Shown one piece after another: positions 43,078 through 46,125 of a DNA stretch of 64,000 nt; position 1 is the stretch's first letter, and each line of letters opens with the position of its first letter. The position numbers and the translations under genes are program-made. Origin of the DNA: an uncultured bacterium (GTDB lineage Bacteria; Eisenbacteria; RBG-16-71-46; CAIMUX01); assembly GCA_964636385.1 (NCBI GenBank), contig CAZWSC010000096.1, forward strand, positions 3,593-67,592, read 5' to 3'. The notes below the pieces were generated by a model. It saw only the letters and a list, made by a program, of their open reading frames with translations. It was not told the DNA's origin and did not search any database.

Positions 43078-46000
43078 TCAGGGCATAGACCCATCCTGAA
43101 CGAGGATCTGCGCCGGAGATCGGGCGTATATGACGGGATCCCCCTGGTACCACTCGATCACGCCCGAGGCGCGCACTGTCATCCCTTCGCGGTAGAGCCC
43201 GGCCACGTTCCGGCCCATCCTGCCATCCAGGCCCGGGAAACTGCTCCAGTCGCTCTTCCTGATCATGACCTTGAACGTCCCCGCGTGCGGATCATCGAAG
43301 CCCAGCAGCATCGCCTTGCCGTTGTTATGCACATAGCGCAGCGTTCCTTCAAGATCGGCATGCCGCCCGCTGTGAACGGCCGCCTCGTGCAGCCGGACCA
43401 GCGGAGATTCTGCGGGCAGTGCCCCGGGATCTGTCGTGGCTTCGCGACGCACATCCCGTCGGAGATGCGTCTGTGTCGATTCGGGGCCGGCAACCCTGTT
43501 CGCCTGTCCATCGCCCCGGGGATCGCCGTGCTCAAGTGCCACGATAGCCCCGTCGCAGCTGCGGAAGTAGACCGTTCCGTTGCTGACTGTCCAGACAGCG
43601 TACTCGCTCCAGTACGTGTCGTACACGGTCCCCTGTCCATGGTAGATGTAGAAGCCCGGGGGGAAGCTCCTCGGGTCGCCGTCCTGCACCAGGTTGATGC
43701 TGCTGTAGTGCGAAGGGCTGTAGGGCACGACGCTGGTGGATGTGACGATGTGGGGCAGGTTCGCGGATGTGATCGGGCTGGTGTAGGTGCCGCGGTTCTC
43801 CGAGCGGTCGAGGATCCGGAGGGGTTGTCCGGCCATCCAGTGGCCACCGAAGAGGTGATCGCCGGCCATGGTGACATTGTGCTGTTCGTCCGTCGGGGCA
43901 GGATACCCGCCGCTGCTTACACTGCCGTCATAGTTGATCCACCTCACGTGGCCGGCCTGCAGGCCGGGGATGGTCGCATCGTCCAGGACCATCTCGCCGA
44001 AGTTGGTGTCCCACCGCCCGTCTATGCCGGGCCCTGACTTGCCGCGGATCATGATGTATGCCGTCTCCGTGTTGTCCGGGAAGCGCCTGACCACCGGTTG
44101 CGGGCCCATCGGCATGTAGCCGCCGTTGCCGTACCCGCCGTGTCCGATGTTGCAGACGAAGGGCACCGAGCCGTCATCCAGACTGAGAGCATGGAGACAC
44201 TGCTGGTCCGGCTGGCTCAGGAGGTTCGCGCGGATTGCGGCGTTCGTGGTTGGCCATGGGCTCCAGTTCCACATCGTGTTCCAGTCCAGGCGCATCTTGA
44301 CGAGGACGAGGCCGTGAGTCTCGGCGATCACAGGCCATCCGTTCGTGAAGTTGACGTCCCCGGACGGATTGCGCGGGCTCGGTTTGACGCGCCATGCCTG
44401 CTGGCCACTGCTGTTCTCGATGGCGTGGACGTAGAGGTCTTCGGTGCAGACTATCACCCTGTCCCGCGAAGGGGAGTATGAAGGGGGCGTCTGAACAGCG
44501 GATCCCGCATCGTAGACCCATACCGGGGCGAGGCTGCTCTTGCCGAGCGCATGGACACTGGCGCCCGCCGAGATGAACAGGCGATCGCCGATGACACAGG
44601 GTGGCGTCGTGATCGGTGCGCCTGCGTTGAAGGTGTTCAGCGTGCTGCCGGTCGACGGATCGAGCCGGTACAGGATGCCGTCGGACCCGGGCACATAGAG
44701 GCTGCCTCCGGCGTCATAGGCGACGGTGGCGTTAACGCTGCCTCCGAGGCTGCGGCTCCAGATCACGCTGCCGTCATCCTCCGACAGCGCGATGACCCCG
44801 TTGCCGCCGCGGGCGATGTAGACCCTCCCCCCGCCTGTCACCGGCTGGACGTTCCTCGGCAGCGAAGTCTTGCCCTGGGATATTCCGCCGGATGAGTCCG
44901 GGCCGTTCCAGGACCACTTCCACCTCCACGGAGCCGGCACGTACTGCCCTGTATAACCTGTCCTCTGGGGGTTGTGGGCGTGCTGGCTCCACTCGCCGTT
45001 CGGAGGGGCCTCCTGCGTGATGAATGCCGTCCTGGCGAAACGGAACCCCGTGCCCGCGTCCGCATCGCCGGGCTGGAGGCCGGCCCGCGCGGCAGAGCGG
45101 CAATCGCGTGCCTGTGCGTACCACCTGCCTCCGCGATTCACCCGGGAGTCCCCGGGGCTGCCTTCATGCACGGGATCGACGGCGTCGAGGTTTTCGTAGG
45201 CTGCAAGGTACGCATCCCACACCCAGTCGGAGGACCCGCCGTGCATGTCGTACAGCCCCCAGGCATTCGCCGGCTTCTGCCCGACGGGCATCGGTTCCGA
45301 GGTGTTCCCGCAGTACCAGCCGATCGCATCCAGGACTGGATCGAGCGGCGTGCAGCCGATGCTGGAAATCGGTCCGTTGGCAAATGCCTCCTGCGATCCG
45401 GCCCTGCAGGCGTACTCCCACTCGGCTTCGGTCGGCAGGCGGTACCCGTCGGCATCCCTGCTCCACACGACATTCCCGCCGGGTCCGTTGATGAGATACA
45501 CAGGCTCCAGCCCCTCCAGAAGCGAGAGCGCGTTGCAGAACTCCACTGCCATGTCCCAGCTGACCTGGGTCACCGGGAGCTGCGGGTCCGAGGGAGTGCC
45601 TCCCATGACCTGGCTCCACAGCTCCCCGGTTACCGCGTGGCGTGAGATGAAGAGGCCTTGTGAGATGGTGACCTCGTGCAGGGTCTCGTCGCCGTATCGG
45701 CCCGGTTCGTCCTGTGGGCTTCCCATCAGGAAGGCGCCCGGAGGGATGAAGATGAACTGCTCCGCATGTGGCGAGTCATCGGCCATGACCCGCAACCGGC
45801 AGGCGGCCTCGGTGAACCCCGGGAAGTCGACGCCGGCGTTCCACTCGATCTGCAGTCCGCTGCCCGGAAGCACGCCCGCGCCGGCATGGCCGCTGACGGT
45901 CAGGCACTGGAGCGGGAATGTCTCCCCGCTGTCAGTGGAGAGGAAGAGCCTGATCATCACAGGCATGTTGCCGACGGTCTGGAGATCGTAGGTGACGTCT

Positions 46001-46125
46001 ATGATACCCGTGCCCGGGCGCTGCTCCGCCTGGACATTGGTGACAGCCAGTTCATCTGCCGATGCGATGGGGGGCAGGGGTGCGAGCATGGCCATGACAG
46101 CGGTAAGCAGTGATCGGACGCGCAT
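43078..46125 (-). CDS. Secreted multidomain protein: N-terminal Ig-like segment, FGE-sulfatase (SUMF1-like) domain, PQQ-type beta-propeller repeats
   Basis: 1015 aa. Signal peptide LLTAVMAMLAPLPPIASA. FGE-sulfatase fold motifs GYRLPTEAEWEYACRAG, GLYDMHGGSSDWVWD and RVNRGGRW. Middle region has repeated ...G-x-[IV]-x-A-[LI]...DG..-W motifs of PQQ enzyme repeats (VIALSEDDGSVIWSRSLGG, LYRLDPSTGSTLNTFNAG, VHALGKSSLAPVWVYDAG, VHAIENSSGQQAWRVKP). Confidence 0.7.
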   Translation of the reverse strand: MRVRSLLTAVMAMLAPLPPIASADELAVTNVQAEQRPGTGIIDVTYDLQTVGNMPVMIRLFLSTDSGETFPLQCLTVSGHAGAGVLPGSGLQIEWNAGVDFPGFTEAACRLRVMADDSPHAEQFIFIPPGAFLMGSPQDEPGRYGDETLHEVTISQGLFISRHAVTGELWSQVMGGTPSDPQLPVTQVSWDMAVEFCNALSLLEGLEPVYLINGPGGNVVWSRDADGYRLPTEAEWEYACRAGSQEAFANGPISSIGCTPLDPVLDAIGWYCGNTSEPMPVGQKPANAWGLYDMHGGSSDWVWDAYLAAYENLDAVDPVHEGSPGDSRVNRGGRWYAQARDCRSAARAGLQPGDADAGTGFRFARTAFITQEAPPNGEWSQHAHNPQRTGYTGQYVPAPWRWKWSWNGPDSSGGISQGKTSLPRNVQPVTGGGRVYIARGGNGVIALSEDDGSVIWSRSLGGSVNATVAYDAGGSLYVPGSDGILYRLDPSTGSTLNTFNAGAPITTPPCVIGDRLFISAGASVHALGKSSLAPVWVYDAGSAVQTPPSYSPSRDRVIVCTEDLYVHAIENSSGQQAWRVKPSPRNPSGDVNFTNGWPVIAETHGLVLVKMRLDWNTMWNWSPWPTTNAAIRANLLSQPDQQCLHALSLDDGSVPFVCNIGHGGYGNGGYMPMGPQPVVRRFPDNTETAYIMIRGKSGPGIDGRWDTNFGEMVLDDATIPGLQAGHVRWINYDGSVSSGGYPAPTDEQHNVTMAGDHLFGGHWMAGQPLRILDRSENRGTYTSPITSANLPHIVTSTSVVPYSPSHYSSINLVQDGDPRSFPPGFYIYHGQGTVYDTYWSEYAVWTVSNGTVYFRSCDGAIVALEHGDPRGDGQANRVAGPESTQTHLRRDVRREATTDPGALPAESPLVRLHEAAVHSGRHADLEGTLRYVHNNGKAMLLGFDDPHAGTFKVMIRKSDWSSFPGLDGRMGRNVAGLYREGMTVRASGVIEWYQGDPVIYARSPAQILVQDGSMP

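Follow-up and report, generated by a model that had tools for sequence, protein, structure and literature searches.

A predicted exported protein joining an FGE-fold domain to a conserved propeller-OB module in an uncultured Eisenbacteria bacterium

In a stretch of 64,000 nucleotides (64 kb) from an uncultured bacterium of the Eisenbacteria lineage (contig CAZWSC010000096.1; referred to below as the window), we analyzed a gene that encodes a protein of 1015 residues. In this protein a domain with the fold of the formylglycine-generating enzyme (FGE), preceded by an immunoglobulin (Ig)-like sandwich, is joined to an eight-bladed β-propeller and a C-terminal barrel resembling the oligonucleotide/oligosaccharide-binding (OB) fold. 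Our results show that the fusion of these two mobile modules is genuine and, as far as our searches reach, that it is unique to one population and represents a single lineage-specific event. The FGE-fold domain is not expected to generate formylglycine and is probably non-catalytic and lectin-like. With moderate confidence, we propose an exported two-module protein in which a lectin-like Ig-FGE cassette and a conserved propeller-OB unit would act together in capturing or processing a glycoprotein or polysaccharide. Each half falls into a domain superfamily already described, and it is the combination of domains that is new rather than the kind of system.

The fusion and its occurrence

The coding sequence is a single intact open reading frame (ORF), in which a signal peptide, the Ig-like sandwich, the FGE-fold domain, the propeller, a disordered linker and the OB-like barrel follow one another (Table 1). 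The N-terminus, MRVRSLLTAVMAMLAPLPPIASA followed by DE, contains two arginines in a basic n-region, a hydrophobic core of 16 residues and a cleavage site of the AxA type, whereas a lipobox cysteine is missing. The N-termini of homologues of the Ig-FGE cassette align at this region. Two AlphaFold2 models were generated, one of residues 1-378 (predicted local distance difference test score, pLDDT, 75) and one of residues 372-1015 (pLDDT 84, predicted template modeling score 0.84). In the former, residues 1-22 are disordered (pLDDT below 50). We infer from these features that the protein starts with a Sec/signal peptidase I signal. A preliminary description, drawn from the sequence without database searches, had proposed a single exported polypeptide combining an FGE-fold domain with a propeller of the pyrroloquinoline quinone (PQQ) type, and the predicted signal, together with the Pfam matches given below, points to the same architecture. 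The two motifs quoted in that description, YRLPTEAEWEYACRAG and GLYDMHGGSSDWVWD, are located at residues 228-243 and 290-304 of the ORF, respectively.

The two modules meet at the sequence ...GFRFARTAF-ITQEAPPNG-EWSQHAHNPQRTGY..., where an in-frame linker of 12 residues, modeled with low pLDDT in both AlphaFold2 models, connects two complete domains. No relic of a former gene boundary (stop codon, start codon, ribosome-binding site or second signal peptide) was found in the linker sequence, and the first residue of the propeller part coincides with the mature N-terminus of its stand-alone homologues. Moreover, an independent assembly from the Joint Genome Institute (JGI; metagenome 3300001533, contig MLSed_10000011 of 198.6 kb) carries the same intact ORF with the same neighbours. 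Its product (P0121, 1015 residues) is identical at 1014 of the 1015 positions, the one difference being F363L. The DNA identity between the two assemblies is 99.73% over 23 kb, and because there are 26 mismatches over this distance they are not the same sequence. GC content and GC content at third codon positions (GC3) are uniform across the modules, and GC3 (0.75-0.84) matches that of the host genes. Two neighbouring genes merged by faulty assembly or sequencing would be an alternative, a sequencing error having been considered at the outset, and the single occurrence of the fusion in very large databases would fit such an artefact. The clean domain boundary, its position, the second assembly and the even composition nevertheless make this explanation extremely improbable.

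A search with the full-length sequence against 5.8 billion clustered proteins returned an identical protein (P0001, NCBI, on a 207-kb contig) and two separate sets of relatives, one for each half, while no second protein with the same fusion was recovered. Likewise, in 185,579 species-representative genomes searched by pattern and tblastn, 23 loci matched either one half or the other and none matched both, and a Pfam census of 42 extended representatives of the propeller family (see below) contained no second member with an FGE-sulfatase domain. The search for the fusion in related genomes that had been suggested earlier thus yielded no further example among protein clusters, species genomes or family members. 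FGE-like domains as such have already been described in numerous combinations, among them fusions to WD40 propellers in targets of diversity-generating retroelements (DGRs) (PMC5758913).

The Ig-like and FGE-fold domains

The Ig-like nature of the segment ahead of the FGE domain, suspected from the sequence, is supported by the AlphaFold2 model, which shows a seven-stranded β-sandwich between residues 27 and 116 (strands 27-35, 41-49, 56-63, 77-79, 82-85, 88-96, and 110-116; pLDDT 73-93). The segment had no match to a Pfam family in a low-threshold scan, even at E≤10, and it is kept in the homologues of the cassette. In the search of clustered proteins, the relatives of the N-terminal half, which consist of a signal peptide, an Ig-like and an FGE domain and match up to about residue 370, were 45-56% identical. 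In two proteins (P0007 and P0069) the cassette is present in tandem, and in three others (P0085, P0092, and P0093) it follows a protease domain of the papain-like or reprolysin-like type at the C-terminal side. Judged by these architectures, signal peptide, Ig-like and FGE domain form a recurrent and independently mobile cassette.

The FGE-like block matched the Pfam profile PF03781 with 130 bits (cut-off 23.3; E=1.3e-37) over practically the full profile (positions 2-255 of 255), so the original family assignment held. The closest structures are, however, not FGEs. Sequence searches of the PDB gave TvpA of the spirochaete Treponema denticola (2y3c) with 6.6e-22 and PvdO with 8.7e-16, whereas true FGEs followed at about 1e-8. 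The same order was obtained with Foldseek, in which TvpA (1.7e-14) and PvdO (3.9e-14) ranked ahead of the FGEs, including the human enzyme (about 1e-10), and of PorK (about 1e-9).

The catalytic cysteine pair of FGEs, already doubted in the preliminary description, is incomplete. When the active-site-equivalent segment was aligned to human FGE (SUMF1; 1y1e, 5ssy) using phmmer, GGRWYAQARDC---RSAAR was paired with GGSYMCHRSYCYRYRCAAR, which places Cys342 opposite human Cys341 and Ala337 opposite human Cys336. There is one cysteine alone in residues 331-365, located between GG333 and GFRFA. FGEs of humans and bacteria alike depend on both catalytic cysteines, and with one thiol at this site the bis-cysteine Cu(I) site of these enzymes cannot form. 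The copper-dependent FGEs of human, Thermomonospora curvata and Streptomyces have in common with this domain the Pfam family, the fold, the equivalent of Cys341 and an R-x-A-A-R motif, but the domain differs from them by the alanine in place of Cys336, by a deletion of three residues after Cys342 and by a similarity weaker than that to TvpA and PvdO.

A genuine FGE, or a different enzyme of the SUMF1/EgtB/PvdO superfamily that matures exported sulfatases or some other substrate, would agree with the strong full-length PF03781 match, with the conservation of Cys342 and the RSAAR motif, and with an export signal that would bring the protein next to periplasmic substrates. Given the loss of the copper site and the far weaker matches to true FGEs, we consider this very improbable. 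Moreover, a Pfam scan of 44 ORFs of the window revealed no sulfatase, and the sulfoxide synthases EgtB, OvoA and SenA were rejected as candidates (TIGR03440, 25.5 bits against a cut-off of 360; SenA model, 27.7 against 420; no DinB domain). PvdO itself was rejected as well (NF051459, 74 bits against 500), and no pyoverdine genes are present in the window. Neither GldK (TIGR03525, 47 against 350) nor GldJ (TIGR03524, 23 against 458) could be assigned, and the signal peptide contains no cysteine.

A non-catalytic binding role, which had been raised as a possibility, is the best reading because the closest structures, TvpA and PvdO, are not FGEs and because TvpA is described as a binder. TvpA is reported to lack FGE activity (PMC5758913), and the FGE-like type VI secretion immunity protein Tsi3 works purely through protein binding (bioRxiv 10.1101/2021.05.21.445229). 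The likeness to TvpA (26% identity, best match to residues 148-364) extends to the GGxW......C..x.R segment with its single cysteine, to the missing equivalent of human Cys336 and to the fold subtype, TvpA being a surface protein with an FGE-subtype C-type-lectin fold. PvdO, PorK/GldK/GldJ and Tsi3 likewise combine an FGE fold and incomplete or absent catalytic cysteines with a periplasmic or envelope location and a role in binding or scaffolding. In contrast to these proteins, the present one has no lipobox and no type VI secretion, type IX secretion (T9SS) or pyoverdine gene context.

TvpA differs in that it is a small lipoprotein and in that a DGR diversifies its C-type-lectin region, which is C-terminal, while the domain studied here is internal, with the Ig-like segment ahead of it and 640 residues of propeller and OB-like barrel behind it. 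That the best PDB match is a DGR variable protein might suggest that the present protein is a DGR target too. We reject this reading and regard it as hardly credible, since neither a template repeat or second copy of the FGE-coding DNA (blastn; best off-target E=0.14) nor a paralogue of the FGE domain (tblastn) was found in the 64-kb window, the 44 scanned ORFs included none with a reverse transcriptase domain, and the C-type-lectin region is not C-terminal as in DGR targets. The single replacement between the two assemblies also leaves no hypervariable patch.

The propeller-OB module and its family

According to the preliminary description, the FGE domain was followed by several PQQ-like repeats and a tail of about 350 residues of unknown function. 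This parsing has to be revised. The propeller model comprises about 32 strands that form eight four-stranded blades, and the presumed tail consists of blades 5-8, followed by a disordered linker and the OB-like barrel. The PQQ_2 profile scored 60 bits (cut-off 27.6), and PQQ_2 and Beta-prop_ACSF4 repeats together covered about residues 404-620. Blades 1-4 alone resemble PQQ-like repeats of the PDB in a profile search, while for blades 5-8 neither a Pfam match in the low-threshold scan nor a PDB sequence match was obtained. The latter blades are invisible to Pfam because of insertions, and they carry the conserved polar residues E711, R728, D746, E747, H762, R774, and R819.

In Foldseek searches of the PDB, the propeller matched BamB (1.6e-18), tetrathionate hydrolase (6l8a), YxaL and the designed protein Cake8. 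BamB, YxaL and tetrathionate hydrolase are eight-bladed propellers without PQQ, and they share with the present protein the propeller class (1e-18 to 1e-15) and the PQQ-like signature of blades 1-4, with target-normalised template modeling scores of 0.53-0.79 across the listed matches. However, they are 13-16% identical to it, and the family-specific insertions of blades 5-8 and the lack of lipoprotein features set the present protein apart. A PQQ-dependent dehydrogenase was rejected (PF01011, 23.4 bits against 26.7, residues 404-494 only; TIGR03075, 16 against 480), and so was BamB, a lipoprotein of about 390 residues (TIGR03300, 59 bits against 285; NF008351, 28 against 423; no lipobox).

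The linker behind the propeller is of low complexity, and its column consensus is not conserved in the family alignment. In the OB-like barrel, strands at model residues 551-557, 560-563, 567-571, 581-585, 612-618, and 625-629 are separated by helices. Its sole sequence support is a sub-threshold match to the tRNA_anti-codon OB-fold family PF01336 (E=0.011), and no PDB sequence match was obtained. The barrel is conserved across the family, with the motifs NNGK, PH, and WYQGDP.

The relatives of the C-terminal half (about residues 378-1015) are dozens of proteins of about 660-750 residues that match this region only. They are found in Anaerolinea thermolimosa, a metagenome-assembled genome (MAG) of Caldilineales, Woesebacteria and Roizmanbacteria of the Candidate Phyla Radiation (CPR), other Anaerolineae and Caldilineae, and further phyla. 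Forty homologues, all but three of 660-752 residues, were 47-57% identical over residues 378-1015, and the resulting alignment of 41 sequences contains many invariant polar residues. The alignment of the region is end to end, with EWSQH at its start and WYQGDP in its tail. The protein matched the family's own profile with 944 bits (profile positions 48-674), and all 15 columns that are invariant across 42 diverse members are present in it. Stand-alone homologues consist of a signal peptide or leader that is followed directly by EW(S/T)QHAHD..RTGY, the same start as that of the propeller part at residue 378. An exhaustive HMMER profile search of 1.84 billion cluster representatives returned 553 representatives of 50%-identity clusters at E≤1e-30, generic multi-PQQ repeat proteins included. 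In many of these matches the module is located at the C-terminus of proteins of 900-1700 residues, and many members do not have the OB part, their profile matches stopping near position 513 or 552.

In the Pfam census, whose members were drawn from the matches of this HMMER search, the fusion partners were dockerin (10 of the 42 members), DUF5060 (8), LamG_3 (7), SLH, CBM96 and fn3-like Pur_ac_phosph_N domains (4 each), and CBM6, CBM4_9, an apiosidase (GH140) and SusE (1 each); the FGE-sulfatase domain was represented by the 1015-residue protein itself. Compared with stand-alone members such as Anaerolinea thermolimosa WP_062192082 (683 residues), the likeness includes the OB-like tail. The difference lies in the added domains, as other members have a signal peptide and the module, with or without a dockerin, SLH, carbohydrate-binding module (CBM), LamG or fn3 domain, and none has an FGE domain. 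Based on these alignments, residues 378-1015 constitute one conserved, self-contained and usually autonomous propeller-OB module. The earlier implication that the FGE domain forms the core of the protein is therefore not upheld; rather, the FGE domain looks like an accessory module, because residues 378-1015 stand alone in many phyla and the Ig-FGE cassette fills the slot of CBMs, LamG, fn3, SLH and dockerins.

Homologue loci often adjoin genes for CBM96, CBM9, CBM35-GH26 or CBM4_9 proteins or for dockerin or cohesin proteins. One locus from a Gammaproteobacteria MAG (L016, 6261-14628) contains four tandem propeller-family paralogues. At another locus (L008, 5943-8263), a family member bearing DUF5060 is followed by a dockerin-protein gene and a cohesin-protein gene, an arrangement that hints at a non-Firmicutes assembly resembling a cellulosome, and relatives of this member at two further loci (L011 and L014) combine DUF5060 with dockerin.

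The OB topology of the model and the weak PF01336 match raise the question of whether the module binds or cleaves extracellular nucleic acid through its barrel, as secreted nucleases do, and genes connected with DNA or RNA adjoin the homologue at some loci (PolX at L010, an MBL/tRNase Z-like gene at L023). This alternative is improbable in our view. OB folds bind oligosaccharides too, the PF01336 match lies below the cut-off, there is no nuclease domain, and the barrel is absent from many members. In addition, neighbours are not conserved across the 13 loci compared by all-against-all blastp of their ORFs, and the fusion partners are carbohydrate-related.

Genomic surroundings and proposed function

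As noted in the preliminary description, the gene is flanked by genes for an FG-GAP protein and a PNGase. The FG-GAP gene lies on the same strand about 150 nt downstream; no convincing terminator was found between the two genes, and co-transcription is possible. The PNGase F gene is divergent. Its mechanically called ORF starts at a GTG at 46110 and thereby overlaps the 5' end of the fusion gene on the opposite strand, but the JGI gene call and the signal peptide MRRSIRNLCALIPAITAVLAAGITQA place the start at the ATG at 46398, so that the two divergent genes are about 270 bp apart. From their domain annotations, the genes at 46398-62105 form a coherent cluster for the breakdown of N-glycans or glycoproteins, of which PNGase F is the first gene (Table 1).

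Table 1. Features of the fusion gene and of other genes in the window.
Feature	Position	Strand	Basis
Complete coding sequence, 1015 residues + stop codon	43078..46125	-	ATG start, single intact ORF
Shine-Dalgarno-like GGAGG, 6 nt 5' of ATG	46132..46136	-	read from sequence
Signal peptide, residues 1-23, predicted cleavage ASA/DE	46057..46125	-	sequence features
Ig-like 7-strand β-sandwich, residues 26-117 (roughly 90 residues)	45775..46050	-	AlphaFold2
FGE-sulfatase-fold (C-type-lectin-like) domain, residues 121-365	45031..45765	-	PF03781
FGE active-site-equivalent segment, residues 331-347, RGGRWYAQARDCRSAAR	45085..45135	-	phmmer alignment to human FGE
Inter-module linker, residues 366-377, TAFITQEAPPNG	44995..45030	-	FGE profile end at residue 365; homologue start at residue 378
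Eight-bladed BamB/PQQ_2-type β-propeller, residues 378-868	43522..44994	-	AlphaFold2, Foldseek
Low-complexity disordered linker, residues 869-908	43402..43521	-	AlphaFold2, pLDDT below 50 at model residues 505-530
C-terminal OB-like barrel, residues 909-1010, five or six strands	43096..43401	-	AlphaFold2
FG-GAP repeat protein with FlgD_ig C-terminal domain, 667 residues	40927..42930	-	Pfam FG-GAP_3 (six), FlgD_ig; JGI gene call
PNGase F, 348 residues, own signal peptide	46398..47444	+	PF09113 (1.2e-33), PF09112; start per JGI gene call
Divergent GH38	47308-50799	+	Pfam, weak scores only
RNase II	51388-53007	+	
Second GH38	53016-56477	-	
GH130	56159-57172	-	
SSF symporter	57218-59146	-	
CBM9-like protein	59143-60420	-	
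GH20	60369-62105	+	
TonB-dependent receptor	2258-4657		
SdhA	6377-8110		

The SdhA encoded in the window is 82% identical to SdhA of Spirochaetota MAGs and 77% identical to that of Spirochaeta lutea and Salinispira pacifica, by which measure the window would come from a spirochaete. The TonB-dependent receptor encoded in the window indicates that the host is a diderm. Three exported proteins of the window end in a FlgD_ig-type domain, namely an unknown protein of 575 residues (175-1902, plus strand), an M1 peptidase (25972-28902, minus strand) and the FG-GAP protein (ORF at 40927-42954, minus strand). Such a tail may serve in sorting or anchoring at the C-terminus, and TIGR04183, which models T9SS sorting tails, scored 19.8 bits on the FG-GAP protein, slightly below its cut-off of 23. 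The fusion protein does not have the FlgD_ig tail of its exported neighbours. The window is also rich in exported peptidases. Two M1-family aminopeptidase genes (920 and 976 residues, the second with the FlgD_ig tail) lie in tandem at 23036-28902 on the minus strand and adjoin the gene of an HtrA-like protease (29453-31165, minus strand), and an M32 carboxypeptidase is encoded at 11094-12641.

We propose that the Ig-FGE part probably acts as a C-type-lectin-like recognition cassette that would contact its ligand with the face of the fold formed by its C-terminal part. This face corresponds to the hypervariable region in TvpA, and in the present protein it keeps one of the two copper-binding cysteines. 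The FGE-fold domain would take the place that a CBM, LamG, fn3 or dockerin domain occupies in other family members, while the propeller-OB unit would supply the conserved working function, and the fusion would tether this unit to the lectin-like domain. The strictly conserved polar cluster of E711, R728, D746-E747, H762, R774, and R819 in blades 6-7 would most likely form a carbohydrate-binding or carbohydrate-cleaving pocket. A glycan or glycoprotein substrate is suggested because the gene lies head-to-head with the PNGase F/GH38/GH130/GH20 cluster, and the protein most likely helps, as a periplasmic or surface-located factor, to capture or process a glycoprotein or polysaccharide.

We lean slightly toward the propeller-OB unit being a carbohydrate-active enzyme (CAZyme) rather than a pure binder. 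A more specific version of this proposal, in which the unit would be the catalytic part of an undescribed CAZyme family (a lyase or hydrolase using the invariant Asp-Glu, His, and Arg cluster of blades 6-7) and the FGE domain a new lectin-like CBM that targets it to glycoproteins or N-glycans, is speculative and unlikely.

Several observations weigh against a role in glycan capture or processing. The link of the fusion gene to the glycan locus is one of adjacency, and the gene is divergent from PNGase F. None of the 13 homologue loci shares a conserved gene neighbour of the family, and at the Anaerolinea thermolimosa locus there is one glycan gene, for a fucosidase, about 9.6 kb off at the locus edge. 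A literature search on the propeller-OB family found no characterisation, and none of its members has a known ligand, substrate or activity. Foldseek returned generic eight-bladed propellers only (BamB, YxaL, and tetrathionate hydrolase), and propellers of the BamB/YxaL type are mostly protein-interaction scaffolds and not CAZymes. In a diderm host, a protein without the FlgD_ig tail may be periplasmic and not exposed on the surface. Furthermore, the FGE domain could be degenerate. In the HGNxxEW motif (window 45226-45237) it has G297 and D300, positions at which N and E are kept in at least 90% of the closest Ig-FGE relatives. The motif corresponds to a Ca2+ site in human FGE, and the change may indicate a lost metal site or relaxed constraint.

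These points bear on a further explanation, according to which the protein would be a BamB/YxaL-like scaffold for protein-protein interactions with no role in carbohydrate metabolism, serving as an adhesin, as an envelope-assembly or periplasmic chaperone-like factor, or as a partner of the FG-GAP protein. Apart from the best structural matches, the FGE-like protein binders Tsi3 and the PorK ring, the attachment of the Ig-FGE cassette to proteases (P0085, P0092, and P0093), the periplasmic location suggested by a diderm host and a plain Sec signal, and the same-strand FG-GAP gene are in line with such a scaffold. However, the family occurs mostly in monoderm Chloroflexota and in CPR bacteria, groups that have no BAM machinery, and its fusion partners (CBM96, CBM6, CBM4_9, dockerin, SLH) are CAZyme and cellulosome modules. 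The score of the BamB model far below its cut-off and the missing lipobox also argue against it, and the polar residues of blades 6-7 are so highly conserved that a pocket for a small ligand or for catalysis is a better fit than an interface with another protein. We therefore regard a scaffold as a possible but unlikely alternative, and favour the capture or processing of a glycoprotein or polysaccharide.

If this proposal is correct, the protein would represent one more reuse of the FGE fold as a non-enzymatic recognition module, here beside glycan-degrading genes. The fusion itself opens no long-standing question. It draws attention, though, to a large and conserved extracellular propeller-OB family whose members in Chloroflexota, CPR bacteria and further phyla are accompanied by CBMs, dockerins and SLH domains. 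This family is the more valuable lead, as work on a single member might reveal a new family of CAZymes or CBMs.

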